Source: an uncultured bacterium
Lineage (GTDB): Bacteria > Patescibacteriota > Saccharimonadia > UBA4664
DNA length: 64,000 bases
Direction: 5' to 3'
NCBI GenBank assembly: GCA_963740635.1
Contig: CAVUEQ010000001.1
Location: 337,026-401,025 of the forward strand
Below, piece by piece: positions 3,304 to 54,530 of the stretch (positions within the stretch are counted from its first letter, which is position 1; each line of letters starts with the position of its first letter). Both the position numbers and the translations under genes were made by a program. The notes below the pieces were generated by a model that saw nothing but the letters and a program-made list of their open reading frames with translations, searched no databases and was not told the origin of the DNA.

Positions 3304-3332
3304 AGCCAATAATCCCTTGGCTGGGGCGGTAG
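3304..3332. repeat. tRNA-proximal copy of the att-like direct repeat (see 1377-1404)
   Basis: Covers the last 15 nt of tRNA-Gln (3318-3332) plus the 14 nt downstream of it. Confidence 0.5.
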
Positions 3333-3392
3333 GGTTCGAACCTACGATTGACGGTACCAAAAACCGTTGCCTTACCACTTGGCCACGCCCCA
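3318..3392 (-). tRNA. tRNA-Gln (anticodon TTG), CCA encoded
   Basis: TGGGGCG TG GCC AAGTGGTAA GGC A ACGGT TTTTGGT ACCGT CAATC GTAGG TTCGAAC CCTAC CGCCCCA G CCA. Cloverleaf folded by hand; U1-A72 as in bacterial tRNA-Gln. Confidence 0.9.
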
Positions 3393-21326: not shown

Positions 21327-21857
21327 TTATGCTTTCGCTTCGCTCAATGCATTTAACACGTTAATTATATTTCTCACATTGCCGGACATGACACCGACAA
21401 AACCGGTCAGCGGGGCCGCGATGGTGCCGACGACCTGAGCAATGAGTTGCTCGCGGGTGGGCAGGGTCGCCAGGGCCTTCACCTCGGCGGCCGACAGGAC
21501 TTGCCCGTCGCCGGTGATGGCGCCCACGATCTCCAGGGCCTCGTGCTTCTGGGCGTACTGGAAGACCACGCGGGCCGGGGCTACCTCATCTTCGAAGCCC
21601 ATGGCGAGCGCCATCGGGCCGGTGAAGGTGGCTGGGTCGATGCCCTTGAAGGCGGGGTTGCCGGCGGCGGCCAGGCGCAGCAGCGTGTTTTTGGTGACAC
21701 GGTAGCTAATGCCTTCGTCGCGCAGCACGGTGCGCAGACCCTCGACCTCGCGGACGGTGAGCCCCCGGTAGTCGGTCATGACGGCCAGTTTGAGGCGGCT
21801 AAGCTCACCGCTGAGGGTGTCAACGGCTTGCTCTTTGGCGGCTCGGGTGATGGCCAT
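21327..21857 (-). CDS. rplJ: 50S ribosomal protein L10
   Basis: MAITRAAKEQAVDTLSGELSRLKLAVMTDYRGLTVREVEGLR.. Confidence 0.95.
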   Translation of the reverse strand: MAITRAAKEQAVDTLSGELSRLKLAVMTDYRGLTVREVEGLRTVLRDEGISYRVTKNTLLRLAAAGNPAFKGIDPATFTGPMALAMGFEDEVAPARVVFQYAQKHEALEIVGAITGDGQVLSAAEVKALATLPTREQLIAQVVGTIAAPLTGFVGVMSGNVRNIINVLNALSEAKA

Positions 21858-22020
21858 ACTAGTCTCCTGACATTCGGGTTAATAATGAAAAATCTCTCGT
21901 CAGCCGAGAGACATACAAAACGTTCCATGCTCTGAGCCACATCGTGCGACGGGCCCGGTCCGGAATCGCCTCGGTAGCGGATTAAGCTCGTGTGAGCAGC
22001 TACTGTCTTCGGTGAACTTG
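21858..22020 (-). promoter_or_regulatory. rplJ 5' leader (candidate L10 leader) with a terminator-like hairpin
   Basis: About 160-nt untranslated leader. Minus strand carries TCTCTCG GCTGA CGAGAGA TTTTT at 21887-21911, 30 nt before the start codon. AGGAG lies 7 nt upstream of the ATG. Confidence 0.4.
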
Positions 22021-22023
22021 GGT

Positions 22024-22052
22024 ATACTACCTGATAATGGCTGATGGGTCAA
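22024..22052 (-). promoter_or_regulatory. Candidate sigma-70-type promoter for rplJL
   Basis: Minus strand TTGACC (22047-22052), 17-nt spacer, TAGTAT (22024-22029). Confidence 0.4.
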
Positions 22053-22317
22053 TGCTTTCGTGCGGGGCAAGTGTACAGACAATGGGGTGGCGAGGCCGCT
22101 CGGAGGGACATGTGTTTTTCCAATTGATGTTGTAATAAGGTTTTATACTCAAACGTGAACTTGTCCTGCATGCCATGTGCGCTTGTTACCTAATAATATG
22201 GCTTTAAGGGCCGATTGTTCTCGGAAGATGAGAAGAATTGAGGCAAGAAGTAGCCATACCATCATTTTGAAAAATGGCGTTCCCTCCGAGGGAGTAAAGT
22301 ATTGAGGGGGCCGAGAC

Positions 22318-22725
22318 TCATTGAGTCTCGGCCCCATTGTCGGTTAGGTTGGGGTCTGGGGTTTCGTCGACGCCCTCGAGGTCTTGAAGGGTTCCGACGA
22401 TGAGCTCGCTGCGCCTCTTGCCGATGAGGCGGTCAAGTTTGGCCCTGAGACGGGCCAACCTCGGCAGGTCCTCGGCGCCTTCGAGTTTGAAGTGGTGCGT
22501 GATGCGCTCGATCCACAGCACTAGGCTGTGGACGGTGGCGGTTTCGTCGGCGACATCCACCTTGGTCTCGGCTGCGACATCCGGCGCAGGATTCAAGATG
22601 TCATCAAGCTGGCGGACGTCACCGGCGAGTTTCTCGGCAGAGACGCGTAAGCGGATGCGCCTCACGATGACCACCGCGATGATTGTCAACGCGCTGAAAG
22701 TCGCGGCCTTTCTTGTTCCGGGCAT
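22318..22725 (-). CDS. Hypothetical membrane-anchored protein
   Basis: Trimmed to MPGTRKAATFSALTIIAVVIVRR.. (ATG 22723-22725). One N-terminal TM segment, acidic C-terminus. A 14-bp perfect palindrome (22307-22335) spans the stop codon. Confidence 0.4.
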   Translation of the reverse strand: MPGTRKAATFSALTIIAVVIVRRIRLRVSAEKLAGDVRQLDDILNPAPDVAAETKVDVADETATVHSLVLWIERITHHFKLEGAEDLPRLARLRAKLDRLIGKRRSELIVGTLQDLEGVDETPDPNLTDNGAETQ

Positions 22726-22864
22726 TGGGACTCCTACGGTCGGTGGGCATATCCGTAACAGACAGTATACATAAAAACGGGGAAGGCGGCCCGGGGCTTG
22801 TGGGCCCCGAACCGCCTTCAGCGCGGCAGACTGGTAGTCCGCCACACTGTTGCTGAAAATCCTC

Positions 22865-24223
22865 CTATCCTTCTATCGCGAGAGGCATATGGTCACCAAA
22901 CTGAGTTGCTAATGCAAATGCCTGTTCCATATTGAACCTCGGGTCTACCCGCGAGCGATAACCTGTTCGCAGGTCGGCTGGAATGATCCGCCCTGGTCCG
23001 CCCAGGCATTCGCTCACGTTGTCGTGTGTGGCTTCCAGGTGCAATCCTCCCGGGAACAGCCCGAAGCTGCTGACGATGTCGGCGAAGAGCAGGCACTCAC
23101 GCAAGATATCGTCGTACTTGCGGGTCTTGATCTTGCTTTGCTCGTCTCCTTCCACTTGGACCTCGACGTTATTTCCGTGCATGGGGTCAGTGAGCAGAAT
23201 GACCGGCTTACCGGTCTTGATGACCTGCTCCAGAATTGGTGGCAGGCACTCTTCGATCTTACTGACCCCGAACCGCATGATGAACGTGAGGCGGCCCGGT
23301 GTCCCGTTCGGGTCGAGCTTGTCCACGATTTGCGGGATGTGCTCAGGAGGCGTCCCTGGGCCCACCTTGTACCCGATCGGGTTGGCGATGGAAGCGGCAT
23401 AATCCACGTGAGCTCCATCTGGGTCGCCGGTCCGGTAGCCGAGCCAGCCCATGTGTGTCCCAAGGTTGTACTTCTTGCCTGTATCGGGATCGCGCCGGGT
23501 AAGCGACCGCTCATATCCGAGCTCGAGGAGTTCGCGTGACAGGTTCATCCTGGGCACGGCTAGAATCGGGTCCGCGGTGTTAGCGCCGCACGCCTTCATG
23601 AACGCAACGGCCCGGTCGATGAGCCCTGAAAGCTCGCGGAACCTAGCGCCCTCGATCGACTTCGATTTGCGCAGTGTGCTCCAGGACTTGAGCAGGTCGA
23701 GGCTGAGGTCGCCGGACCGCACGTAGTTGCCAATGAGGTTGTGTGTACTCATCGACTGGTTGTACGCCTGGAGGAGCCGGTTCGGGTCGGGCACCCGCTG
23801 AGCGAGCTCGATGCCGTTGACAGCGTCACCGTAGTAGCTGTAGTACCGGACGCCGTTGATGGTGACGTACTGGCTGCTGCGGGGCTTGAAGAACTGTGAC
23901 CAGCGCAGGAATCTCGCGACCGGCAGCCCCAGTTTGTACTGGAGCACGATGGACACCTCGACAAGGTGCGCCACCTGGGCTCGCATGTAGAGCTCGAGCT
24001 CCGGGCTGTCCTTGAAAGTCTCCGCGCAGTCCCCCATCATGAGCGCGATTGCCAGACCCTGGGCGACGGCGGCGAGTTCGGCCGTCCCGGCGTCGATGGC
24101 CCGGGGGTCGGTAATGCCCGGGCGTTTTCGGATTTGACGCAGCACCGAGCGGTACTGGGCGCGGTTGGGCCACGGGGCCTGGTGCAGCGGTGCGGCTTTG
24201 CGGATGCGCGTTGGTGTTGTCAC
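22865..24223 (-). CDS. Class II 3-deoxy-7-phosphoheptulonate (DAHP) synthase homologue
   Basis: 452 aa, GTG start with AGGGGG 6 nt upstream. Family blocks MMGDCAETF, QFFKPRSS, NPIGYKVGPG, IMRFG, LLTDPMHGNN, GGLHLEATHDNVSECLGG, VDPRFN. Candidate Cys/His/Glu/Asp metal ligands are all present. Confidence 0.8.
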   Translation of the reverse strand: MTTPTRIRKAAPLHQAPWPNRAQYRSVLRQIRKRPGITDPRAIDAGTAELAAVAQGLAIALMMGDCAETFKDSPELELYMRAQVAHLVEVSIVLQYKLGLPVARFLRWSQFFKPRSSQYVTINGVRYYSYYGDAVNGIELAQRVPDPNRLLQAYNQSMSTHNLIGNYVRSGDLSLDLLKSWSTLRKSKSIEGARFRELSGLIDRAVAFMKACGANTADPILAVPRMNLSRELLELGYERSLTRRDPDTGKKYNLGTHMGWLGYRTGDPDGAHVDYAASIANPIGYKVGPGTPPEHIPQIVDKLDPNGTPGRLTFIMRFGVSKIEECLPPILEQVIKTGKPVILLTDPMHGNNVEVQVEGDEQSKIKTRKYDDILRECLLFADIVSSFGLFPGGLHLEATHDNVSECLGGPGRIIPADLRTGYRSRVDPRFNMEQAFALATQFGDHMPLAIEG

Positions 24224-24290
24224 CTAAGCCCCCTTGGGCGGTTGGGTTGGATGGATATTCAGTTTTGATGTACGCGGGGCCTAATTTCTA

Positions 24291-24317
24291 AAAAACCTGC
24301 CCCGGGGGCAGGTTTTA
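24291..24317. terminator. Hairpin with A/T flanks between the IS copy and the DAHP synthase gene
   Basis: AAAAACCTGCC CCGGG GGCAGGTTTTA. Confidence 0.5.
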
Positions 24318-24451
24318 AGGGTGTGCGGTGTTAAAACCTAGCCTCGGGGAAGGTTGCTCGTAAACCAGTAGTAGTAGAAGGTTGGGCGGCTAGAAGTCAT
24401 TTGTGGGGATTATGCCTGGCTACAGAGCACAAGTCAAGGGCGAAATATCGC

Positions 24452-25335
24452 GGTTCTGTCCACTAAACCGGAACAGCCATACTCTTAAGTAATGTGAATG
24501 GGTCTCGAAATAGTTCAGGGTGGCTCCTCCGTGCCTGAAACTCCTGCAGTATGCCGGACAAGAAGCGCTTCAAGAAGCGGTCGCGGGTTCGGATGACAAA
24601 CCGGTCCAGGCAGCTCCAGACATTCTCGGCCCGGTTGGTTGGCCCGAAGTGCCCCCGGTCATGGTTGCAGACGACGAGTCCGTAGCCGACGTCCTCGAGC
24701 CCCAGATGGGAAGCGTGGGCGTCAGCATGAATGAGGCTGCCGACCTCAGCGTGACGGTCAAGGAAGCCCTCAACGGTATCTTGGGCTACATCCGGAATGA
24801 CCTCTAGTCGCACTTTGTTTGTTTCCCGGTCGACCACCCCCATGACAATAGCTTGGTTGCCATATTTCTGGTGACCCAGGAAGGACTCGTCAATCTCCAG
24901 GAGGCCAGCCAATGGGTCGCCCTCACTGCGGGGCAACCGGGACCGGAGCCGTTCCAGCCACCGCTGCACCGTCGGGTAGCTGAGGCCGGTCGCCACCACA
25001 ATGTCGCCTGGAGAGTGCTTGCCCTGCCAACAGATGACGAGGGCCAGGATCTTGACCCAGGACAGCTTCGAGAACCCGAATCCCAGGTTGCGCTTGAGGC
25101 TCCATTTCCGGCGGCAGGTACCGCACCACAGGTATTTCTCCCGTACAAGTATTGTCTTGTGGCTTTGCCAAGGGCAAACCAGGCCATTGGGATATATTTC
25201 CCGGACCACCAGCTCGACACACTCCTGGTTATCCCGGGGCAGATTTATTAAGGTATACATTGGAACAAGTCTCCTTGCTTTAAGTTATTGCCGTAACTTA
25301 AGTGTAGAACTTGTTCCGCTTTAGTTTAGAGAACC
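24452..25335 (-). mobile_element. IS1595-family insertion sequence, copy A (884 bp)
   Basis: Identical base for base to 32372-33255. Imperfect terminal inverted repeats GGTTCTGTCCACTAAACCGGAACA / GGTTCTCTAAACTAAAGCGGAACA (20 of 24). 9-bp direct target duplication AAATATCGC at 24443-24451 and 25336-25344. Confidence 0.9.
24463..25260 (-). CDS. IS1595-family (ISXO2-like DDE) transposase
   Basis: 265 aa. N-terminal Cys-rich zinc ribbon (CPW..CGTCRRKW), then ..LLEIDESFLG.., ..GSLIHADAHASH.., ..PTNRAENVWSCLDRF.. Confidence 0.85.
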   Translation of the reverse strand: MYTLINLPRDNQECVELVVREIYPNGLVCPWQSHKTILVREKYLWCGTCRRKWSLKRNLGFGFSKLSWVKILALVICWQGKHSPGDIVVATGLSYPTVQRWLERLRSRLPRSEGDPLAGLLEIDESFLGHQKYGNQAIVMGVVDRETNKVRLEVIPDVAQDTVEGFLDRHAEVGSLIHADAHASHLGLEDVGYGLVVCNHDRGHFGPTNRAENVWSCLDRFVIRTRDRFLKRFLSGILQEFQARRSHPELFRDPFTLLKSMAVPV

Positions 25336-25356
25336 AAATATCGCCGGCAGGTGTGG

Positions 25357-25396
25357 GTAGCATGGAGGCCGCGGGTTAGCTCGGCCTCCATGCTAC
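25357..25396 (-). terminator. Strong hairpin downstream of the glyA-side operon
   Basis: Perfect 15-bp stem GTAGCATGGAGGCCG (25357-25371) / CGGCCTCCATGCTAC (25382-25396) with a 10-nt loop. No clear U-tract. Confidence 0.45.
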
Positions 25397-25400
25397 GTCG

Positions 25401-25763
25401 CTACGACGGATCCTCGCTCCCTGGCCGGCGCTCCTTGGTCGCATCTTTGAGATCCGATTTCGCTGCTAGCTCCAACAGATCCGATTCAAGGCCTAGCCCG
25501 CCGGGTGGGTGGAGGGGAACTCCGCGCCGCATGCGCTTCAGGGCACCCAGCAGTCGTCCCCAGCGCGACATGCCATGCTCGTCGATGCTGCCTGCCCGGT
25601 CCAGATCTTGCAGTGCAGCCGCCAGTGGTGGGTCGCGTTCTGGCCGGGTGAGCGCGATTGAAATTCGTTTGATCAATTCGGCGGCTGCTAGGCTATGGTC
25701 ACGCGAAAGTTTGTTGAGCTCTCTGTAGGAGAACCTAAAGTGGATTAGGCTGGCGAATACCAC
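25401..25763 (-). CDS. Hypothetical protein (weak call)
   Basis: 120-aa ORF overlapping the glyA 3' end by 19 nt. No family recognised. The opposite-strand ORF is Arg/Ser-rich. Confidence 0.3.
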   Translation of the reverse strand: MVFASLIHFRFSYRELNKLSRDHSLAAAELIKRISIALTRPERDPPLAAALQDLDRAGSIDEHGMSRWGRLLGALKRMRRGVPLHPPGGLGLESDLLELAAKSDLKDATKERRPGSEDPS

Positions 25764-27004
25764 CAGTTAAGTTTTTTGGCGAGCTTTAACGCGAACTCCT
25801 TGGCTTCATCTTCACTGGTTTTCCCTAGCGCCAGGCCGGCAATGAGGCGGCCGAGTTTGGTGGCTTGGGCCGGGGTGAGGCCGCGGCTGGCCAGGGCCGC
25901 CGTGCCGAAGCGCATGCCGCTGGGGCGCCAGGCTGATTTGGTATCAAACGGGATCATGTTGCGGTTACTAATGATGCCTGCCCTCTCGAGACTGCGCTGA
26001 AACTCCAGGCTGTCGACGTCGTCCGGGAGCTTGATGAGGCAAAGATGGTTTTGGGTGGGGCTCACGACCTCCAGACCGCCCGCTTCGGCACCGGCTTCGA
26101 GCGCCCGGCAGGTGTCGAGGATGGCCTGCGAGTAATCCTTGAAGCTGCGCCCGTCGGGGTGCTGCTCTTCGCCTAGAATCTCGAGCAGGGCCTGGCCGGC
26201 CGCGGCAATTTGATGCAGGTGCGGGCCGCCGGACGTGCCCGGGAAAATGGTCTTGTTGATGGCCGGCATGTGTCCGGTTTTGGCAAACAGCATGGCCCCA
26301 CGCGGGCCGCGGAAGGTTTTGTGCGTGGTCATGCTCACAAAATCCGCGCCCTCGTCCCCCGCGCGAAACGGCGTGTCGTGCAGCCCGGCCGCTACCAGCC
26401 CGTTGATGTGGGCGATGTCGGCCAGCACCAATGCCCCGGCCTCGTGCGCCCACTTGGTAAATTGAGCGAATTTGTACTGGCGCGGGTAGGCGGAAAAGCC
26501 CAGGATGACCAATTTGGGCTTATGCTCGGCCAGCTTAGCCCTGTAATCGTCCTCGTCGATATCGAAGGTGTGTGGGGCGGTCTCTTTTACGTCATAATTG
26601 ACAAGCTTGAAGAATTTGAGGTAATTGCTGGTGGCGTGGAGGTGGCTGAGGTGTCCGCCGTTGGCCAGGTTGAGGCTCATGATGGTGTCACCGGCCTCGA
26701 GCATGGCCAAATACACCATGGTGTTGGCAGGGGAGCCCGAAAGGACCTGCACGTTTACGCCGTACTCGCCGGTGGCATCAAAGACTTCGAGGGCTTTTTG
26801 TTGCACGAAAGTTTCCATTTCGTCGGCGTACACATTGCCGGCATAATAGCGCTTGCCGGGGGTACCCTCGGCGTACTTGTTGCTCCAAACGCTGCCGAGC
26901 AGGTCAAGCGCCGCCTGCGAGGGGTAATTCTCGGAGGCTATCAGGTTGAGGGTGTCGCGTTGCTTGTCGAATTCCTGGGCGGTAAGGTCTGAAAGTTTAC
27001 TCAT
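25745..27004 (-). CDS. glyA: Serine hydroxymethyltransferase
   Basis: ..LIASENYPS.., ..GGHLSHL.., ..TTHKTFRGPRGAM.. Confidence 0.95.
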   Translation of the reverse strand: MSKLSDLTAQEFDKQRDTLNLIASENYPSQAALDLLGSVWSNKYAEGTPGKRYYAGNVYADEMETFVQQKALEVFDATGEYGVNVQVLSGSPANTMVYLAMLEAGDTIMSLNLANGGHLSHLHATSNYLKFFKLVNYDVKETAPHTFDIDEDDYRAKLAEHKPKLVILGFSAYPRQYKFAQFTKWAHEAGALVLADIAHINGLVAAGLHDTPFRAGDEGADFVSMTTHKTFRGPRGAMLFAKTGHMPAINKTIFPGTSGGPHLHQIAAAGQALLEILGEEQHPDGRSFKDYSQAILDTCRALEAGAEAGGLEVVSPTQNHLCLIKLPDDVDSLEFQRSLERAGIISNRNMIPFDTKSAWRPSGMRFGTAALASRGLTPAQATKLGRLIAGLALGKTSEDEAKEFALKLAKKLNWWYSPA

Positions 27005-27019
27005 GGGCAGTTGTGCTCC

Positions 27020-27433
27020 TTATTCTTGAATTTGCTTGAACTTGTCAGCAATTAACGCGGGTACCTCACTTAGACGCTCATATCTAACCAAAGAATACTT
27101 CTTTGACGGGATACCCTCAACCAGTCTAGAAATATGCGTGGCTTTGTGGGCTAATGCCAATACGGGCTTGTCGTGTTTTTCGATGGCAGTGGCAATTTCA
27201 TATCCCAGACCGATGGCCGGGTAATCGCAGATGGCCACGAACAGGTCGCAAGAGCCGACATTGGTGACAATGTCGCGCTGGTAGACATCTGCCGGCGTGC
27301 CGCCCACGAGCCCGATAAATTCCAATACCTCAAAGCGGGAGTGCAGTTCGCGCTTCATGTCTGCAATGGCCGCTACAAATTCAGGCGGGGCTTGGGTGAG
27401 TGAATGCCCGATGTAAAGTTTGGGCTTAGGCAT
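27020..27433 (-). CDS. Nucleoside 2-deoxyribosyltransferase-like superfamily protein
   Basis: Trimmed to MPKPKLYIGHSL.. (ATG 27431-27433; 8-nt overlap with tmk). ..CDLFVAICDYPAIGLGYEIATAIEKHDKPVLAL.. fits the NDT/Rcl-type fold with a conserved Glu. Confidence 0.6.
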   Translation of the reverse strand: MPKPKLYIGHSLTQAPPEFVAAIADMKRELHSRFEVLEFIGLVGGTPADVYQRDIVTNVGSCDLFVAICDYPAIGLGYEIATAIEKHDKPVLALAHKATHISRLVEGIPSKKYSLVRYERLSEVPALIADKFKQIQE

Positions 27434-28124
27434 GTGCGGCTCCGATGAGCGGTTTAACCAGGCGCCGGATTTCGCCCTGGATGTCGTCGATGGTGCGGAT
27501 TTTGCCCTCGGGGGCGCAGTCGATGGCGGTGACGGTGCCCGATAGCAGGCGGCAGATTTCGGCATAGGTGGTGGCTACGCGCCCGAGGTAGGCTAGGTCG
27601 TCTTCATGGATGTCGCGGGTTTTGCCCCCGAGGTGGGCGCGGCCGCCGCGCTGGTCGACCAAGCCGCGGGCTATGCCGGCCGGCATTTGCAGCACAATGT
27701 TGAGGTCGGGGCGCGGGATGCCCAGGATGCCGTATTCGAGATCTTCGTTCCAGGCAAAGTAGCGGCGGCGTTCCTCGGGTGAACTGATTTTGGCTCCCTG
27801 ATGGCCCATATTCGATATTACGTAGCGGTCACAGATGATGGTTTTTCCTGCTGATAAAGCCTTTTCAATGTCAGCTGCGGTGTCAAAGCGGTCGAGGGCG
27901 TAGAACAGTGAGCTCCGGTAGGCATCAACATCGTCAACTGTGCCGTATCCCCCGTTCAGGTATTTTTCGACGAAGTAGGCGGATGGCTGGCCGTAGCGCG
28001 GGAAGTCGAACGACTTTGTGTGCACGCCTTGCTCAGTGAGCCATTCGGTGAGTAATTGGTAATGCGTGCTCTTACCCGAGCCGTCGCTACCCTCAATAAC
28101 GATGAAGTGTCCCCTATTTGGCAT
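27426..28124 (-). CDS. tmk: Thymidylate (dTMP) kinase
   Basis: GHFIVIEGSDGSGKSTH.. P-loop, DRY motif (CDRYVISN). Confidence 0.9.
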   Translation of the reverse strand: MPNRGHFIVIEGSDGSGKSTHYQLLTEWLTEQGVHTKSFDFPRYGQPSAYFVEKYLNGGYGTVDDVDAYRSSLFYALDRFDTAADIEKALSAGKTIICDRYVISNMGHQGAKISSPEERRRYFAWNEDLEYGILGIPRPDLNIVLQMPAGIARGLVDQRGGRAHLGGKTRDIHEDDLAYLGRVATTYAEICRLLSGTVTAIDCAPEGKIRTIDDIQGEIRRLVKPLIGAAHA

Positions 28125-28638
28125 GGGCTTTGGTTAAAGTATTGTTCGGATTGGCTTTGTTAAACAGGAACTCGCTGCCTTCGAGAAGGTACACCTGCTT
28201 TATTCCGGCCGCAATCATTTTGTCCCAGCAAGGCTGGCAGCACCACCAATGGCCCCAGAGGTAAATGTCGGCGCCGTTGACGTCAACGCCAGCACCCTGG
28301 GCCGCGGCCAGGGCTTTGGCCTCGCCGTGGTTCTTGGGGTGGCAGCCTTCGCAGAGTTCGTAACCCTGGCCTGTGGGGATGCCGCGCCGCACGCGTTCGC
28401 AGCCGTGCAGGCGGTGGTAGTCGCTGCCGTTGGCGCCTTTGGCGATGATTTTGCCGTCGCGCACGATGACGCTGCTGTTGGGCATGGCGTCGTCGAGCGA
28501 CTCAGCCTTGGCGGTTTTTTCGGCCTCACGCATAAATTCGTTGCCGGCCGGCACGTACTCAATCGTCCGGCCCGCGGGCAAATAGGGGTAGCTCACGCTG
28601 TGCACCGATTTCACCACCATATTATATACTGTTAGCAT
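28114..28638 (-). CDS. CMP/dCMP-type zinc deaminase (dCMP deaminase-like)
   Basis: ..HGCERV..CEGCHPKNHGEAKALAAA.. (HxE) and ..WWCCQPCWDKMIAAGIKQVYLL (PCxxC). The alternative start is M7 at 28618-28620. Confidence 0.75.
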   Translation of the reverse strand: MLTVYNMVVKSVHSVSYPYLPAGRTIEYVPAGNEFMREAEKTAKAESLDDAMPNSSVIVRDGKIIAKGANGSDYHRLHGCERVRRGIPTGQGYELCEGCHPKNHGEAKALAAAQGAGVDVNGADIYLWGHWWCCQPCWDKMIAAGIKQVYLLEGSEFLFNKANPNNTLTKAHAK

Positions 28639-28639
28639 T

Positions 28640-29476
28640 ATGGCGCGATTTGACCAGATTTACCAAGACTTGCTGCGGGACATTTTGCGCGACGGGATCG
28701 CCGAAACCAACGGCCGCACCGGGCATGAAACCAAAGCGCTGCCGGGCATAAGCTTTTCGGTAGACACAGCGCGCGAAGGGTTCCCACTGCTGGGCCTGCG
28801 CAAAATCCCGCTGAAGGTGTTTATTGCCGAGCAAATCTGGTTTGTGAGCGGGGCGCGGCGGCCCGACGATTTTCTGCGCGACTTCACCAAGATTTGGGAC
28901 GACTTCACCAACCCCAACGACGTGGTGACAGTGGCCTATGGCTACCGCTGGCGGCGGCATTTTGGCCGCGACCAGCTGGCGGCGCTGGTGGCGCTGCTGG
29001 AGAATGACCCATCGAGCCGGCACGGTGTGGTGGTGACGTGGGACCCGTCGAGCGACGGACTGGGCGGCACTGCCCGGGGCAATGTTCCCTGCCCCTACAC
29101 GTTTACGGTTAACATCATCGGCGGGCGGCTGCACCTGCACAATATCGTGCGCTCCAATGACGTGATGCTGGGCCTCCCTCACGATGTGGCCGGGTTCGCG
29201 CTGCTGCAGGCGATGCTGGCGCAGCGGCTGGGGGTGGAGCCGGGCGTGTACACGCATTCGATCTCGAATGCCCACATTTACGACATTCATTACGAGGCGG
29301 CTGAATCGATGCTCGAGCGCACGACCGACCAGCCAAAGGTGGACCTGGAGCTACCGCACGATTCGTTTAAGCGGGCGGAGGGCAAGGATCCGGTGTTGGT
29401 GCAGGAGATCTTTGAGGCTTTGAGCAGCCAATATCACCCGTCTGATGCGGTGCCAGGCCTGAGGATTGTACTTTGA
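28640..29476 (+). CDS. thyA: Thymidylate synthase (ThyA) family enzyme with an atypical pyrimidine-specificity residue
   Basis: RTGHET, FIAEQIWFV, AYGYRWR, DPSSRHGVVVTW, VPC(151)PY, VRSNDVMLGLPHD(182)VAGFALL, NAHIY, and the C-terminal ..VPGLRIVL tail. See the finding on D182. Confidence 0.8.
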   Translation: MARFDQIYQDLLRDILRDGIAETNGRTGHETKALPGISFSVDTAREGFPLLGLRKIPLKVFIAEQIWFVSGARRPDDFLRDFTKIWDDFTNPNDVVTVAYGYRWRRHFGRDQLAALVALLENDPSSRHGVVVTWDPSSDGLGGTARGNVPCPYTFTVNIIGGRLHLHNIVRSNDVMLGLPHDVAGFALLQAMLAQRLGVEPGVYTHSISNAHIYDIHYEAAESMLERTTDQPKVDLELPHDSFKRAEGKDPVLVQEIFEALSSQYHPSDAVPGLRIVL

Positions 29477-29976
29477 AAGTGGTGCTGGTGGCGGGTATAA
29501 CGGCTGACGGGTTTATAGCCCGGCATGCGGGCCAGACGTCGATGGACTGGACGAGCCCGGAGGACAAGAAACATTTCGTGCAGGTCACGAAAGAGTTGGG
29601 GACGATGGTGCTGGGCTCGACTACGTTTGACACCATCGGGAGGGCATTGCCGGGCCGGCGCATGATCGTGATGACCAGCCGGCCGGAAGCTTACGAGGTG
29701 CCTGGGGTTGAAACCTTTACCGGGAGTGCCCAGGATTTGGTGTCAGAACTCGAATCCGAAGGTGTGCCGGCGCTAGCGGTCATTGGCGGGGCCGGTGTGT
29801 ACGGACAATTTCTGGCCGCGGGGCTGGCCGACGAACTGATGCTCACGGTTGAGCCGCACGTATTTGGCCGTGGTATTACGCTGGCTGATGCCGATCTTGA
29901 CCTCAAGCTGCGGCTGCTGGACACGCAAAAGCTCGGGGAGAATTCAATAGTTATTCAATACGAAGTGGAGCGATAA
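29473..29976 (+). CDS. Dihydrofolate reductase family protein (RibD C-terminal-like fold)
   Basis: MKVVLVAGITADGFIA.., ..MVLGSTTFDTIG.., ..VIGGAGVYGQFL.. The TTG start overlaps the thyA stop by 4 nt. Confidence 0.7.
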   Translation: MKVVLVAGITADGFIARHAGQTSMDWTSPEDKKHFVQVTKELGTMVLGSTTFDTIGRALPGRRMIVMTSRPEAYEVPGVETFTGSAQDLVSELESEGVPALAVIGGAGVYGQFLAAGLADELMLTVEPHVFGRGITLADADLDLKLRLLDTQKLGENSIVIQYEVER

Positions 29977-29977
29977 C

Positions 29978-30640
29978 ATGGCAATTTTGACGCGTATCCA
30001 GATTCTCGAGCGCATGAAGCAGGAGAATTTGGGTTTCTCGCCCAACCTGGACACATTTCAGTTGCAGGAGCATTCGATTGATTTACGGCTAGGGTTCACT
30101 TTCCTGATCCCGAAATCGTGGCAGCTGACGCCGCGAGGGCGCGAGGCGGTTTCGATTGACTCGTTTGGTGACAACGTGTATCCGGCGCCGCATTTCGATG
30201 TGGTGGAGTTGGAAAAAGGGCAATATTTTGAATTGCTGCCGGGCGAACACATCACGGTGTCGACGCTGGAGGCGGTAAAAATACCTAACGACCTCATGGC
30301 CGTGCTTTACCCGCGTTCCAGCACCAACCGCCGGGGTTTGAGCGTGGACCTCACCGGCATCGTAGATAGCGGCTACGAGGGGCAGCTAATTATTCCGTTA
30401 AGAAACAGCACCGCCCACCAGACCATCCGGCTCTACCCAGGTGAGCGCATTTGCCAGATAATCTTTGAGGAACTGGGGCACAAAGTTAGCCCGCGCCGGA
30501 GCCGCTACCACAAAAAGGACATCATTGAGGGGATGATTGTAGAGGGCCAGCCCAAGGAGCGTGAGGTCGAGATGGCGCTGATTCGCAAGGGCGAAATCCG
30601 CGAGCTCAAGGCCGAACATGCGGTGGATGTAGACTCCTAA
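29978..30640 (+). CDS. dcd: dCTP deaminase family protein
   Basis: MAILTRIQILERM.., ..SIDLRLG.., ..GIVDSGYEGQLIIPLRNST..IRLYPGERICQIIF.. About 25 aa of C-terminal extension. Confidence 0.85.
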   Translation: MAILTRIQILERMKQENLGFSPNLDTFQLQEHSIDLRLGFTFLIPKSWQLTPRGREAVSIDSFGDNVYPAPHFDVVELEKGQYFELLPGEHITVSTLEAVKIPNDLMAVLYPRSSTNRRGLSVDLTGIVDSGYEGQLIIPLRNSTAHQTIRLYPGERICQIIFEELGHKVSPRRSRYHKKDIIEGMIVEGQPKEREVEMALIRKGEIRELKAEHAVDVDS

Positions 30641-30772
30641 ATACATGATTCGCCTAGAATACGCGAAGCCGCACCTGAGGGTTAGGAGGAAGCCGGCGCC
30701 GAAAAGATGATCCGGTTGCGTAAAAATACTTAAAATTGGTATGCATAAAAATTTTTAGTAATTATGCAAAAG

Positions 30773-30804
30773 CAGAACAGCCCCTTGCAAGAGGGGCTGT
30801 TCTG
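30773..30804. terminator. Convergent terminator between dcd and rplA
   Basis: CAGAACAGCCCCT TGCAAG AGGGGCTGTTCTG: 13-bp stem, followed on the minus strand by CTTTTGC. Confidence 0.7.
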
Positions 30805-30818
30805 GTGGGCTGGGATGT

Positions 30819-31832
30819 TTATTTTTTGCCGGTGGCGACGGCGGAGATGGTGGCCGCAGAGTCGACCTTGATGCCGGGGCCCATACTCGTGGTGACGGCG
30901 ATGGCCTTCACGTAGGTGCCCTTGGCGGTGGCCGGTTTGGCCTTGAGGATGGCCGCGAGGAAGGTGGTGACGTTTTCGGCCAGTGCCTCGGGCTTAAAGG
31001 AGACCTTGCCGACGGCCTGGTGAATGATGGCCTGCTTGTCGATGCGGAACTCGACCCGCCCGGCCTTGGCCTCTTTCACGGCTTTGGCGACGTCGGGGGT
31101 GACAGTGCCGGATTTGGGGTTGGGCATGAGGCCGCGCGGGCCGAGGACCTTGGCGACTTTGCCCAGGGTGGCCATGCCGGCCGGGGTGGCTACGAGCATG
31201 TCGAAGTTGAGCTTGCCGGCCTCGATGTCTTTGAGCAGCTTGTCGGCGCCCACGATGTCGGCGCCGGCGGCCTTGGCCTCATCGGCGGCTTTGCCGTCGG
31301 CGTAGACGGCCACGCGGATGGTCTTGCCGGTCCCGTGCGGCAGAACCACGGTGGAGCGGACCATTTGGTCTGCCTGGCGCGGGTCGACGCCGAGGTTGAT
31401 GTGCAGCTCCACTGAGCTATCGAACTTGGTGCTGGCGGTCTTGCGGGCCAGGTCCAGGGCTTCGTCGAGCGCGTAGGGTTTGCCGGGCTCGATGAACTTC
31501 GCGGCTTCGCGGTATTTCTTGCCGTGCTGGTGGAGCGGGTTGGGTACGGAGCGCTTGGCGGGCTTAGGGGCTTCTCCGGCTGCGGCCTCTGCCTCGGCCC
31601 GGTGCTCCTTGGCCTCCTGGCGGGCCTCTTCGGCTTCGGCTTCGCGGACGGCCTTGGCACTGTGTTTGCCGGCCTTGGTCAGTTTGGCTTCGGCCCCGGT
31701 GGTCACTTCTTCGGCCTCAGCAGTTTCGGTTTCGGCAACTGCTTCGGTATCAGTGGTGATTTCCTCGGTAGGTTCGACTTCGGGTGTCTCCACTACTTCT
31801 TCAACTTCCGCGGTTTTCTTCTTGGTTGCCAT
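30819..31832 (-). CDS. rplA: 50S ribosomal protein L1 with an acidic N-terminal extension of about 100 aa
   Basis: The canonical L1 core starts near ..[24 protein letters not shown].. (about aa 103). The ATG at 31830-31832 overlaps the rplK stop (TAATG). Confidence 0.9.
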
Positions 31833-32266
31833 TACTGCGTTACCTCGATGCCCATGGAGCGGGCCTGGCCGGCAACAATTTTGGCGGCGGCCTCCAGGCT
31901 GTGGGCGTTCATGTCCTGGATTTTCTTTTCGGCCAGTTCGTTGACCTGGGCCTGAGTGAGCGTACCAACTTTGGTCTTGTTGGGCACGCCTGAGCCTTTG
32001 TCGACGCCGGCGGCATGGCGGATCTGACTGGCCATCGTTTCGCTTTTAAAGCTGAAGATGAAGGTGCGGTCTTCGTAAATCTGGACCTTCACATTGAGCA
32101 ATTGGTCGCCTAAATCGCGGGTTTGGTCGTTGAACGCGTTAATGAAGTCCATCATGTTGACGCCGTGCGCACCGAGCATCGAACCAACCGGGGGCGCCGG
32201 AGTAGCTTTGCCCGCTTGCACGCGGAATTTAATATTGGCCTTTACAGGCTTGGCAACTGTGGCCAT
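31832..32266 (-). CDS. rplK: 50S ribosomal protein L11
   Basis: ..[34 protein letters not shown].. Confidence 0.95.
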
Positions 32267-32371
32267 AGAATTCTCCTAGTGGTCAAACGGCCGCTCGGCG
32301 GCCTCCCACGCGTTATGTTAACTGTGAGATGGTAACAGATTGTGGGCGGCTTGGGAAGAGTATTATGACTG

Positions 32372-33255
32372 GGTTCTGTCCACTAAACCGGAACAGCCAT
32401 ACTCTTAAGTAATGTGAATGGGTCTCGAAATAGTTCAGGGTGGCTCCTCCGTGCCTGAAACTCCTGCAGTATGCCGGACAAGAAGCGCTTCAAGAAGCGG
32501 TCGCGGGTTCGGATGACAAACCGGTCCAGGCAGCTCCAGACATTCTCGGCCCGGTTGGTTGGCCCGAAGTGCCCCCGGTCATGGTTGCAGACGACGAGTC
32601 CGTAGCCGACGTCCTCGAGCCCCAGATGGGAAGCGTGGGCGTCAGCATGAATGAGGCTGCCGACCTCAGCGTGACGGTCAAGGAAGCCCTCAACGGTATC
32701 TTGGGCTACATCCGGAATGACCTCTAGTCGCACTTTGTTTGTTTCCCGGTCGACCACCCCCATGACAATAGCTTGGTTGCCATATTTCTGGTGACCCAGG
32801 AAGGACTCGTCAATCTCCAGGAGGCCAGCCAATGGGTCGCCCTCACTGCGGGGCAACCGGGACCGGAGCCGTTCCAGCCACCGCTGCACCGTCGGGTAGC
32901 TGAGGCCGGTCGCCACCACAATGTCGCCTGGAGAGTGCTTGCCCTGCCAACAGATGACGAGGGCCAGGATCTTGACCCAGGACAGCTTCGAGAACCCGAA
33001 TCCCAGGTTGCGCTTGAGGCTCCATTTCCGGCGGCAGGTACCGCACCACAGGTATTTCTCCCGTACAAGTATTGTCTTGTGGCTTTGCCAAGGGCAAACC
33101 AGGCCATTGGGATATATTTCCCGGACCACCAGCTCGACACACTCCTGGTTATCCCGGGGCAGATTTATTAAGGTATACATTGGAACAAGTCTCCTTGCTT
33201 TAAGTTATTGCCGTAACTTAAGTGTAGAACTTGTTCCGCTTTAGTTTAGAGAACC
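32372..33255 (-). mobile_element. IS1595-family insertion sequence, copy B (884 bp)
   Basis: Identical to copy A. 9-bp target duplication TTATGACTG at 32363-32371 and 33256-33264; the right-hand copy contains the stop codon of the DUF2277-like gene. Confidence 0.9.
32383..33180 (-). CDS. IS1595-family transposase (identical to 24463-25260)
   Basis: Same 265-aa product. Confidence 0.85.
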   Translation of the reverse strand: MYTLINLPRDNQECVELVVREIYPNGLVCPWQSHKTILVREKYLWCGTCRRKWSLKRNLGFGFSKLSWVKILALVICWQGKHSPGDIVVATGLSYPTVQRWLERLRSRLPRSEGDPLAGLLEIDESFLGHQKYGNQAIVMGVVDRETNKVRLEVIPDVAQDTVEGFLDRHAEVGSLIHADAHASHLGLEDVGYGLVVCNHDRGHFGPTNRAENVWSCLDRFVIRTRDRFLKRFLSGILQEFQARRSHPELFRDPFTLLKSMAVPV

Positions 33256-33531
33256 TTATGACTGCAGCCCGAACCGCTTGATTGCGCGTTCGTGGGCTTT
33301 GGCGGCTTCGACTTCACGGTTTTTGGGTTCGGCGTCGGTGATGAGCGAGTTGAGCAAGCGTCGTGCGACACCTGTGACCTCCTCAACCCCGCGGTCGAAA
33401 GCGGCTTCGTTGGCCTGGGACGGCTCGTGGTAGCCGGACAGTTTGCGCACGAACTGCAGGGTGGCGTCGTGGATTTCGTGCTCGGTGGCAGGCGGATCGA
33501 AGTTAAATAGCGTCTTAATATTGCGGCACAT
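33256..33531 (-). CDS. DUF2277-like small protein
   Basis: MCRNIKTLFNFDPPATEHEIHDATLQFVRKLSGYHEPSQANEAAF.. matches my recollection of that family. Confidence 0.65.
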   Translation of the reverse strand: MCRNIKTLFNFDPPATEHEIHDATLQFVRKLSGYHEPSQANEAAFDRGVEEVTGVARRLLNSLITDAEPKNREVEAAKAHERAIKRFGLQS

Positions 33532-33559
33532 GGCGGCCTCCTTTATCGTATTTTACAGA

Positions 33560-34066
33560 ATGAAATTGAGCTTTCTGGCCAAGATCGAGATCACGGGAGT
33601 AAATCCGTATGTGTTGGTGACTTCTGAGCTGGCTGTGCAGATGCGGCCGGATTGGCATGGGCCAATGCCGGTACGGGTGCAGATTAACGGGCAACCTGAA
33701 CCCCCTTGGCATATCAACATGATGCCAATGGGCCACGGGAATTTCTACTTGTATTTGGCCGGAGTAGTGCGCAAGGCGTCGAAAACCGGCGTGGGCGATG
33801 TAGTGCGGGTGGTGGTGGAATTTGATGAGGGTTACCGCGGTGGGCCGGATGATCTGCCGGAGTGGTTCGAAGAGGCGGTGGCGGGGAATGTGACGGCTTC
33901 GGCCAACTGGCAGGCGCTCACGCCCAGCCGCCAAAAAGAGGTGGTGCGGTATCTGCGGGCGCTGAAATCGGACGAGGCCCGCGAGCGCAATCTGGAGAAG
34001 GTGATGCGAATGTTGGCAGGCGAGAGCGGCCACTGGATGGGCCGGGATTGGGAAGACGGGCAGTAG
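33560..34066 (+). CDS. DUF1905 / YdeI (OmpD-associated)-like protein
   Basis: Trimmed to ATG 33560 (MKLSFLAKIEITGVNPYVLV..). C-terminal ..WQALTPSRQKEVVRYLRALKSDEARERNLEKVM.. Confidence 0.65.
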   Translation: MKLSFLAKIEITGVNPYVLVTSELAVQMRPDWHGPMPVRVQINGQPEPPWHINMMPMGHGNFYLYLAGVVRKASKTGVGDVVRVVVEFDEGYRGGPDDLPEWFEEAVAGNVTASANWQALTPSRQKEVVRYLRALKSDEARERNLEKVMRMLAGESGHWMGRDWEDGQ

Positions 34067-34069
34067 TAG

Positions 34070-34612
34070 CTAGATCTTCTTGACCTGGAGGCTGTCAAGC
34101 TCGACGGGGGTTTCGCGGCCGAACATGTTGACCAGAACTTTGATCTTGCCCTTGTTCTCGTCGATTTCGTTGACCATGCCGTCGAAGCCCTTGAAGGGGC
34201 CGTCGACGATGTTGACCGCTTCCCCGACCGAGAAGTCGATCTTGAATTTGGGCTCTTCCACGCCCATGCGTTTTTGGATGTGCTTGACTTCATCTTCGGA
34301 GATTGGCGTGGGGGTGGTGCCGGAGCCGACGAAGCCGGTGACGTTGGGGGTGTTGCGCACCACGTACCAGGAATCTTCGGTGACGTCCATTTGGACTAGG
34401 ACGTAGCCCGGGAAAATGCGGCGTTCGACGATGCGGCGGCGGCCATTCTTGATCTCGATCTGGTTTTCCTTGGGCACGATGACATCAAAGATTTTGCCGG
34501 CCATGTGCATGGTCTCAATACGTTGGCGCAGGTTCTCGGCCACACGGTCTTCGTAGCCGGAATAGGTGTGGATTACGTACCAATGCTTGGATTTGGTATG
34601 GCTCTCGGTCAT
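34070..34612 (-). CDS. nusG: Transcription termination/antitermination factor NusG
   Basis: KHWYVIHTYSGYEDRV.., ..FPGYVLVQM.., KOW ..GEAVNIVDGPFKGFDGMV.. Confidence 0.95.
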   Translation of the reverse strand: MTESHTKSKHWYVIHTYSGYEDRVAENLRQRIETMHMAGKIFDVIVPKENQIEIKNGRRRIVERRIFPGYVLVQMDVTEDSWYVVRNTPNVTGFVGSGTTPTPISEDEVKHIQKRMGVEEPKFKIDFSVGEAVNIVDGPFKGFDGMVNEIDENKGKIKVLVNMFGRETPVELDSLQVKKI

Positions 34613-52778: not shown

Positions 52779-52854
52779 TGGCAGGGGTGGCAGGACTCGA
52801 ACCCACGACACACGGTTTTGGAGACCGTTGCTCTACCAACTGAGCTACACCCCT
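52779..52854 (-). tRNA. tRNA-Trp (anticodon CCA), CCA encoded
   Basis: AGGGGTG TA GCTC AGTTGGTA GAGC A ACGGT CTCCAAA ACCGT GTGTC GTGGG TTCGAGT CCTGC CACCCCT G CCA. Confidence 0.9.
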
Positions 52855-54234: not shown

Positions 54235-54309
<75 letters not shown>

Positions 54310-54353: not shown

Positions 54354-54439
54354 TGGTGCCGGGTGAGAGATTCGAACTCCCGAAGGCTAATGCCAGGTGA
54401 TTTACAGTCACCCCTCGTTGGCCACTTGAGTAACCCGGC
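54354..54439 (-). tRNA. tRNA-Tyr (anticodon GTA), long variable arm, CCA encoded
   Basis: GCCGGGT..GGTGA CTGTAAA TCACC TGGCATTAGCCTTC GGGAG TTCGAAT CTCTC ACCCGGC A CCA. Confidence 0.9.
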
Positions 54440-54455
54440 AGGATGTGAAAATTAC

Positions 54456-54530
54456 TGGAGCCGGCGACAGGAATCGAACCCGTAACCCACACTTTACAAA
54501 AGTGTTGCTCTACCGTTGAGCCACGCCGGC
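54456..54530 (-). tRNA. tRNA-Thr (anticodon TGT), CCA encoded
   Basis: GCCGGCG TG GCTC AACGGTA GAGC A ACACT TTTGTAA AGTGT GGGTT ACGGG TTCGATT CCTGT CGCCGGC T CCA. Confidence 0.9.

Follow-up and report, generated by a model that had tools for sequence, protein, structure and literature searches.

Cellular thymidylate is thought to be made from dUMP by ThyA or ThyX. A 64-kb stretch of DNA from an uncultured member of the Patescibacteria, or Candidate Phyla Radiation (CPR), raises the question of whether a cell may start from dCMP instead. This stretch (contig CAVUEQ010000001.1 of assembly GCA_963740635.1, positions 337,026 to 401,025; hereafter the window) carries an open reading frame (ORF) for a homologue of thymidylate synthase (TS), here called the TS-like ORF, in which the Asn that selects uracil is replaced by Asp. 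A preliminary description of the window had proposed from this a dCMP methylase and a dUMP-independent route to dTMP. Wherever that proposal lent itself to testing in silico, the outcome agreed with it, the function itself being a prediction. From its sequence, the TS-like ORF is predicted to be a cellular enzyme of the Xp12-type deoxycytidylate C5-methyltransferase family and the core of a conserved thymidylate module of Patescibacteria. If this is true, thymidylate is made in a third way in a very large bacterial radiation.

Active-Site Residues of the TS-Like ORF

The TS-like ORF matched the Pfam family PF00303 (Thymidylat_synt) with an E-value of 8.6e-52. Of the two TIGRFAM TS models, only TIGR03284 was passed (121 bits against a cut-off of 108 bits); the score was under the cut-off of TIGR03283 and far under the cut-offs of all seven NF-series NCBIfam TS equivalog models. 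The AlphaFold2 model (pLDDT 83) had the TS fold, with full-length Foldseek TMq values of 0.7–0.79 against bacterial ThyA; it gives support at the level of the fold and holds no residue-level or ligand information.

Both phmmer, which paired rsndvmlglphdvagfall of the TS-like ORF with rsad(i/v)flgvpfniasyall of solved bacterial ThyA structures, and MAFFT alignment with E. coli ThyA placed Asp182 on the column of E. coli Asn177, the pyrimidine-selecting residue (Table 1). The position of this Asp, as given in the preliminary description, was thereby confirmed at the level of the alignments. Misalignment was ruled out, as phmmer against PDB sequences, two MAFFT runs and family profile tests agreed (the profile HMMs were built from one of the two MAFFT alignments), and chance or a sequencing error was ruled out by the presence of Asp in all 120 close homologues described below.

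In the MAFFT alignment, Cys151 was paired with Cys146, and Asn173 and Asp174 with Cys168 and Asp169, respectively. The TS-like ORF shares with canonical ThyA (EC 2.1.1.45) the fold, the catalytic Cys, Glu58, Tyr94, Arg166, Ser167, Asp169, His207 and Tyr209 (E. coli numbering), a C-terminal tail, and dihydrofolate reductase (DHFR) and serine hydroxymethyltransferase (SHMT) as genomic partners; Trp80 and Arg126 were also kept. In contrast to canonical ThyA, it has Asp182 in place of Asn177, Pro152 in place of His147, Asn148 in place of Leu143, Phe89 in place of Trp83, Val170 in place of Gln165, and His128 in place of Arg127. The Pro after the catalytic Cys had been pointed out before, and so had the TS-type tail: the C-terminal QYHPSDAVPGLRIVL aligned with the end of E. 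coli ThyA, GYDPHPGIKAPVAI, whereas T4 gp42 has no such tail. The E. coli ThyA and T4 gp42 reference sequences used here reproduced all of the residue numbers quoted in two structural papers.

Distribution of Asp-Type TS

Asp occupied the Asn177 column in 120 of the 120 best database homologues (68–100% identity). Where their source was named, these came from Saccharimonadales, Parcubacteria, Paceibacterota and Colwellbacteria, all of which belong to the Patescibacteria, and where a source gave a protein label, it was plain "thymidylate synthase". The motif NVPCP was present in 117 of the 120, the remaining three having been missed by the pattern search. Relatives of the TS-like ORF were found in 259 GTDB species genomes, of which the best 80 were metagenome-assembled genomes (MAGs) of Patescibacteria or unclassified MAGs, with 63–72% identity.

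Among the best 150 representatives of 50%-identity clusters, 129 had Asp, 17 had Asn and 4 did not cover the column, which gives Asp in 129 of 146 column-covering sequences. Asp177 co-varied with Asn143, Phe83, mostly with Pro147, and with loss of Gln165 in most sequences, some Asp-type proteins keeping Gln165. Leu143, His147 and Trp83 were present in 18 of 18 Asn-type sequences of the alignment. NVPCP was found in 105 of 122 Asp-type sequences, as well as in the TS-like ORF and in phage Xp12. By the sequences compared, the Asp-type TS is a clade-wide feature in Patescibacteria and not special to this genome.

Relationship to the Xp12-Type Family

The top matches of the TS-like ORF in the phage collection were Xp12-like siphophages. 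Identities (and bit scores) with the TS homologue of Xp12, E. coli ThyA and T4 gp42 were 37.6% (162 bits), 30% (105 bits) and 23% (39 bits), respectively, T4 gp42 being the most distant reference. The TS-like ORF scored 316 bits with a profile built from 110 non-CPR Asp-type sequences, each less than 45% identical to it, and 218 bits with the Asn-type profile. Masking of the six signature columns changed these scores to 263–273 bits and 200 bits, respectively. A crude neighbour-joining tree agreed with the Asp-type placement but was not robust. By overall sequence similarity, the TS-like ORF is thus grouped with the Xp12-type family and not with canonical ThyA.

The TS homologue of Xp12 (QNN97214.1) shares with the TS-like ORF the fold, Asp177, Asn143, Pro147, Phe83, Asp169 and a TS-type tail. 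It contains KNVPCP, LWDKF and RSSD..GLPYD, and long stretches are identical in the two proteins, e.g., AYGYRWRRHFGRDQL. Differences were found at the Arg127 position (His in the TS-like ORF, Arg in Xp12) and at the C-terminus (GLxIxL in the TS-like ORF, NPKPEVxx in Xp12). The gene order in Xp12 is TS, dCMP deaminase and DHFR, with DHFR two genes downstream, so deaminase-family and DHFR neighbours are common to both. Unlike its Xp12 counterpart, a phage tool for replacing C by 5-methylcytosine (5mC), the TS-like gene is chromosomal, lies in the nusG–rplKAJ region and is conserved across Patescibacteria, and it therefore looks like a housekeeping gene.

The nearest non-CPR relatives were on phage-like contigs (with terminase, HNH or helicase genes) or IMG/VR contigs. 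In most of these, the Asp-type TS had a deaminase gene in its vicinity, together with a gene for Dut or a Dcd-like protein. Three IMG/VR contigs (L089, L090 and L091) encoded TS homologues 51–64% identical to the TS-like ORF, with NVPCP and Asp, and had deaminase, Dut or Dcd-like genes nearby. These are possibly CPR phages or misclassified CPR fragments, and they hint at exchange between CPR bacteria and phages. Among the 50%-cluster representatives, natural fusions were also observed, joining an Asp-type TS to an N-terminal MazG-like PRA-PH pyrophosphatase (P0147) or to an N-terminal dCMP deaminase (P0148). In a further protein, P0165, an HNH domain was present in the N-terminal extension upstream of the TS domain.

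Predicted Substrate and Product

In characterized members of the superfamily, position 177 is Asp in enzymes with cytosine substrates (T4 dCMP hydroxymethylase (dCH), MilA and BcmA, as well as the RB69/DLP3 enzymes) and Asn in enzymes with uracil substrates (TS and dUMP hydroxymethylase, dUH). In the MetaGPA study, positions 177 and 147 best separated the TS homologues of cytosine-modified contigs. The single change N177D in E. coli TS or N229D in L. casei TS is reported to yield an enzyme that prefers and methylates dCMP. In contrast to the engineered enzymes, which are crippled laboratory mutants, the Asp of the TS-like family is natural and invariant and goes together with co-varying substitutions at positions 143, 147, 83 and 165.

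Other positions bear on the sugar and on the product. Ala at Ser167 and Lys at Arg126' mark ribonucleotide use, as in the CMP hydroxymethylase MilA; the TS-like ORF has Ser172 and Arg127 at the Ser167 and Arg126 positions, which are the deoxyribose markers. Three positions before the catalytic Cys (Cys-3, E. coli Leu143), TS enzymes have Leu, whereas hydroxymethylases have an acidic residue (Asp or Glu), and the T4 D145N substitution abolished synthesis of 5-hydroxymethyl-dCMP. The TS-like ORF has Asn148 at this position. D169N marks the 5-hydroxy-dCMP synthases of the RB69 gp48 type, whereas Asp174 of the TS-like ORF is the unchanged residue, Asp being present in all 140 aligned sequences. 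Hydroxymethylases have no TS C-terminal tail, and they need no DHFR because their folate product is tetrahydrofolate (THF) and not dihydrofolate (DHF). T4 gp42 shares with the TS-like ORF the TS fold, the Asp at the base-selecting position and the RSND motif, but it has the water-activating Asp145 at Cys-3, no tail and THF as product, whereas the TS-like ORF has Asn at Cys-3, a tail and a coupled DHFR gene. The RSND motif that had been likened to T4 is indeed present, but it is not diagnostic of function; Asn143 is more informative than RSND for a methyl versus a hydroxymethyl product.

By these literature markers, the TS-like ORF is predicted to be a deoxy-specific, cytosine-specific and methyl-forming enzyme of the Xp12 type. 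A methyl product, and not a hydroxymethyl or hydroxyl product, is predicted from the Asn at Cys-3, the retained Asp169, the tail and the coupled DHFR. The earlier preference for reductive methylation over hydroxymethylation is thus upheld as a prediction.

Natural dCMP methylases and a route from 5-methyl-dC to dT nucleotides are already known for phages. The Xp12 TS homologue and five of seven metagenomic Asp-type homologues made 5-methyldeoxycytidine (5mdC) in vivo in E. coli (bioRxiv 10.1101/2024.12.05.627091). The deaminases adjoining the phage Asp-type TS prefer 5mC, and the authors proposed that dT nucleotides are supplied in this way, bypassing the dUMP-dependent TS (bioRxiv 10.1101/2024.12.05.627091); they also cite cytosine-to-thymine labelling in Xp12. 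The same preprint names no residues that determine 5mC selectivity and calls the trait polyphyletic. The idea of a natural dCMP methylase gained support, but as an idea it was not new, since such enzymes had been described from Xp12 and metagenomic phages and the phage route from 5mdC to dT had been proposed. In our literature search, CPR papers treated this gene as ordinary thyA, and no paper was found that noted the Asp in CPR "ThyA" or proposed a dCMP-methylase route for a cell. What appears to be new here is that a phage-type nucleotide-modifying enzyme putatively provides a large bacterial radiation with its housekeeping thymidylate pathway.

Genes of the Thymidylate Module

The genes around the TS-like ORF are listed in Table 1. 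Their conservation was scored by tblastn of the neighbouring proteins of the window against the 80 best loci, counting genes within 3 kb.

Table 1. Positions in the window of the TS-like ORF, its marker residues, the surrounding genes and other features.
Feature	Position	Strand	Assignment or remark
TS-like ORF, 278 aa	28640..29476	+	Predicted Xp12-type deoxycytidylate C5-methyltransferase (5-methyl-dCMP synthase)
N148-V-P-C151-P152	29081..29095	+	Catalytic Cys, Asn at Cys-3 (E. coli L143), Pro at Cys+1 (E. coli H147)
Asp182, codon GAT	29183..29185	+	E. coli Asn177 column (pyrimidine-selecting residue); phmmer and MAFFT
TS-type C-terminal tail QYHPSDAVPGLRIVL	29429..29473	+	Aligns with the C-terminus of E. 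coli ThyA
DHFR-family gene	29473..29976	+	Pfam DHFR_1 4e-17, RibD_C 8e-17; 4-nt overlap with the TS-like stop
dCMP-deaminase-family gene, divergent	28114..28638	-	Pfam dCMP_cyt_deam_1 2.6e-10; PDB 2HVV dCMP deaminase 3.6e-4
Deaminase motif H-G-E	28321-28329	-	
Deaminase motif C-x-x-C	within 28228-28242	-	
Dcd-like gene	29978..30640	+	Alignment to E. coli Dcd; Pro140 (CCG 30395-30397) at the deaminase Glu
dTMP kinase (Tmk)	27426..28124	-	Pfam Thymidylate_kin 1.5e-19; within 3 kb in 39/80 loci
SHMT (regenerates CH2-THF)	25745..27004	-	Pfam SHMT 1.6e-106; within 3 kb in 51/80 loci
orf137, between SHMT and tmk	27020..27433	-	Gene call; faint DNPH1/Rcl-like (dNMP N-hydrolase) similarity
nusG-rplK-rplA-rplJ cluster	21327-34612		Contains the module and the DAHP synthase
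Class-II DAHP synthase	22865-24223		
IS1595/ISXO2-family element	24452-25335		884 bp
IS1595/ISXO2-family element	32372-33255		884 bp
tRNA-Gln	3318-3392		
tRNA-Trp	52779-52854		
tRNA-Thr	54235-54309		
tRNA-Tyr	54354-54439		
tRNA-Thr	54456-54530		

The DHFR-family gene is coupled to the TS-like ORF, as had been stated, by an overlap formed by the start TTG at 29473 and the stop TGA at 29474–29476, and an independent gene call gave the same overlap. The encoded protein showed 31% identity to E. coli FolA and kept Asp27 and the GG motif, and it was weakly similar to the DHFR of Xp12 (34% identity, E = 4e-10). DHFR was part of the operon in 49 of the 80 loci. CPR folA genes complement an E. coli folA deletion.

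The deaminase-family gene was adjacent to the TS-like gene, upstream of it and divergent in 79 of the 80 loci. The distance of 1 nt given earlier holds for the longest ORF (ATG at 28638) only, the independent gene call starting at GTG 28605 and leaving 34 nt, whereas the divergent arrangement itself was borne out. The motifs H-[S/A/G]-E and C-x-x-C were kept in 78–79 of 80 loci. The protein was most similar to ComEB-type dCMP deaminases. It is predicted to be a 5-methyl-dCMP deaminase. Since the CPR and Xp12 deaminases are not detectably related by BLAST, they were recruited separately. En-bloc transfer of the Xp12 TS–deaminase–DHFR trio was not supported, given the weak similarity of the DHFR proteins and the unrelated deaminases. 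As a further observation, the CPR deaminases had H-S-E instead of the usual H-A-E in 44 of 80 loci, and their zinc motif was W-W-C-C-x-P-C.

Downstream of the TS-like gene, 78 of 80 loci carried the Dcd-like gene. Alignment with E. coli Dcd paired qliiPlrns with civlEfyns, and the wild-type, E-to-A and E-to-D variants of Dcd in PDB had the substituted residue in the same column. We take the catalytic Glu of Dcd to be E. coli E138, the residue in the column that holds Pro140. All 76 CPR loci in which the motif could be located had Pro in this column. The Dcd-type RSSxxR motif was kept, and the protein scored above the NCBIfam dCTP_deam cut-off despite Pro140. On two virus-classified or phage-like contigs, L087 and L091, the same Pro variant was encoded at a distance of 1.7–2.7 kb from an Asp-type TS, and a search of the phage collection with the Dcd-like protein returned distant Dcd or dUTPase matches only, mostly from archaeal viruses. 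From its residues, the Dcd-like protein is a candidate dCTP (or dUTP) pyrophosphatase, and its annotation as "dCTP deaminase" in CPR genomes is likely to be wrong. In modified-cytosine phage contigs, by comparison, a MazG-like PRA-PH is the pyrophosphatase reported to co-localise.

A canonical dUTPase (Dut) of about 145 amino acids was encoded inside the module in 21 of the 80 loci (L003, L006, L008, L011, L014, L015, L017, L020, L025, L030, L037, L039, L040, L042, L049, L050, L054, L069, L070, L072 and L078), with motif 5 (RGxxGFGSTGK) in both of the sequences inspected, so the role of the Dcd-like protein is not just that of the cell's dUTPase. No canonical Dut was found in the 64-kb window. 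The usual order in the Dut-bearing loci was Dut–tmk–SHMT–deaminase / TS–DHFR–Dcd-like, and these loci have two dUTPase-superfamily genes side by side.

Lastly, orf137 had no Pfam match and no PHROG match. All 12 of its full-region PDB matches were DNPH1/Rcl, at non-significant E-values of about 0.2–0.6, and the GxGYE motif was kept. Relatives of orf137 were present in 6 of 80 loci; in 5 of these they lay no more than 3 kb from the TS-like gene. One role that orf137 could have is the sanitation of a by-product nucleotide.

Proposed Pathway

From the residues, family placement and gene neighbourhood observed, we infer the steps of a classical thymidylate pathway running in reversed order, in which methylation would come first and deamination after. 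The starting dCMP would be formed from dCTP, with release of PPi, by the Dcd-like protein, which without the deaminase Glu could act as no more than a pyrophosphatase, or would come from salvage; this is the weakest of the steps. The TS-like enzyme would then convert dCMP and methylenetetrahydrofolate (CH2-THF) to 5-methyl-dCMP and DHF, as the active-site signature and the homology to Xp12 suggest, with CH2-THF serving as both one-carbon donor and reductant. The near-obligatory adjacency of the divergent deaminase suggests that it would convert 5-methyl-dCMP to dTMP and NH3, and Tmk would phosphorylate dTMP to dTDP. DHF would be returned through THF to CH2-THF by the overlapping DHFR and the nearby SHMT. 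Animal and phage dCMP deaminases accept 5-methyl-dCMP, and the deamination step therefore needs no exotic chemistry.

The phage route through mSCD-B5 (bioRxiv 10.1101/2024.12.05.627091) likewise methylates C first and deaminates second, with adjacent genes for an Asp-type TS and a deaminase. However, mSCD-B5 needs triphosphates or single-stranded DNA and serves a fully 5mC-containing phage (bioRxiv 10.1101/2024.12.05.627091), whereas the ComEB-like cellular deaminase would act before 5mdC reaches the DNA, presumably at the monophosphate level.

In our judgment, the conversion of dCMP to 5-methyl-dCMP and on to dTMP is probably the housekeeping pathway of these Patescibacteria. If so, hundreds of CPR genomes carry "thymidylate synthase" and "dCTP deaminase" annotations that have to be corrected, and metabolic models of obligate epibionts change with respect to the fate of dUMP, folate demand and sensitivity to antifolates or FdUMP. 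It would also be a sign that genes for a core pathway have passed between CPR bacteria and phages.

Alternative Functions of the Module

Several points weigh against this pathway. The classical route calls for exactly this set of dCMP deaminase, TS, DHFR, SHMT, Tmk and Dut, the sole difference being that two steps come in the opposite order, so the argument is built on the active-site signature and family placement and not on the genomic context. If the TS-like enzyme refuses dUMP, it is hard to see what would become of the dUMP made by Dut, and 5-methyl-dCMP must be kept from CMP kinase, as otherwise 5mC would enter DNA at random. Formation of 5-methyl-dCMP has been demonstrated solely for Xp12 and five of seven phage relatives, none of them from CPR, and in the published assay no 5mdC was formed by the other two of the seven metagenomic phage enzymes (bioRxiv 10.1101/2024.12.05.627091). 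Asn143 lacks the "bulky hydrophobic" character to which the exclusion of water is ascribed, and it is interpreted here from Xp12 and its relatives. The CPR deaminase has no detectable BLAST relation to that of Xp12. The search for thyX, a canonical thyA and tdk, described below, covered the window and 1.19 Mb of related loci. An ordinary dUMP-methylating TS would accommodate the classical composition of the module, including the canonical Dut in 21 of 80 loci: an Asp, possibly protonated, in a rebuilt pocket would read uracil, and Dut and the Dcd-like protein would supply dUMP in the classical order. The retained Cys, Glu58, Tyr94, Arg166, Asp169, His207, Tyr209 and tail agree with such an enzyme, as do the passed TIGR03284 cut-off, the treatment of the gene as thyA in CPR papers, and the need of cells to make dTMP where no other TS was found nearby. 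Yet none of the Asp177 enzymes cited, natural or engineered, is dUMP-selective, His147 and Leu143 are replaced together with Asn177 while every Asn-type sequence of the alignment keeps Leu143, His147 and Trp83, and by overall similarity the protein falls into the Xp12-type family. We therefore regard a dUMP-methylating TS as unlikely.

Methylation of dCMP could also serve DNA more than dTMP. If 5-methyl-dCMP were made mainly for DNA, 5mC would replace C partly or fully as in Xp12, the Dcd-like protein would lower dCTP, and the deaminase would divert a part to dT. Cytosine-substituting phages do have a parallel gene set, in which an Asp-type TS is combined with a deaminase and a nucleotide pyrophosphatase, and the Dcd-like protein keeps RSSxxR but cannot deaminate with Pro at the Glu position. 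We nevertheless consider this very improbable, as our literature search gave no 5mC-substituted DNA in any cellular organism or CPR genome, no dedicated 5-methyl-dCMP kinase is evident, and the module lies among ribosomal protein genes with Tmk, SHMT and DHFR, as expected of a housekeeping dTMP pathway. A variant in which a part of the 5-methyl-dCMP is phosphorylated and incorporated, so that replication-installed 5mC partly or fully replaces chromosomal C and the Dcd-like protein acts as a dCTPase like T4 gp56, has an even fainter prospect; if true, it would give a self-DNA mark to organisms that scavenge host nucleic acids and the first cellular genome with base substitution at the nucleotide level. 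Least probable of all is another C5 chemistry on dCMP, namely hydroxymethylation as by T4 gp42 or hydroxylation as by RB69 gp48. Asp177 is common to these enzymes, Asn143 is polar and not the water-excluding Leu of ThyA, and the faintly DNPH1-like ORF in the module resembles a 5hmdUMP N-hydrolase. Against this stand the Asn at Cys-3, with T4 D145N being inactive for hydroxymethylation, the Asp and not Asn at position 169, the C-terminal tail, the coupled DHFR, which only a DHF-producing reaction needs, and the distance to T4 gp42.

Genomic Setting

The thymidylate module and a class-II DAHP synthase gene are inserted in the otherwise universal nusG–rplK–rplA–rplJ cluster, where the module lies between rplA and rplJ. 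In 46 of the 80 CPR loci rplK adjoins the module, which suggests an old and stable placement, and the gene order of the window, which is part of a contig of about 829 kb, is common to Saccharibacteria loci. Prophage or viral cargo was ruled out by this position between rplA and rplJ and by the rplK adjacency.

No second ThyA was found in the 64-kb window or in the 1.19 Mb of related loci, each locus having one TS-like ORF. ThyX was likewise absent from the window and from these loci, with a query validated against PDB and a motif scan that was also negative. Tdk was encoded in one of the related loci.

Two IS1595/ISXO2-family elements, 100% identical and in direct orientation, bracket the region from SHMT through rplK. 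Each copy has its own target duplication of 8–9 bp, AAATATCG(C) and TTATGACTG, respectively. The two copies are therefore independent recent insertions, and a composite transposon was ruled out. Were they to recombine with each other, the entire thymidylate module would be lost together with rplKA. The window has a G+C content of 59%, which is high for a CPR genome, and it carries five tRNA genes, for Gln, Trp, Tyr and, in two copies, Thr (Table 1).

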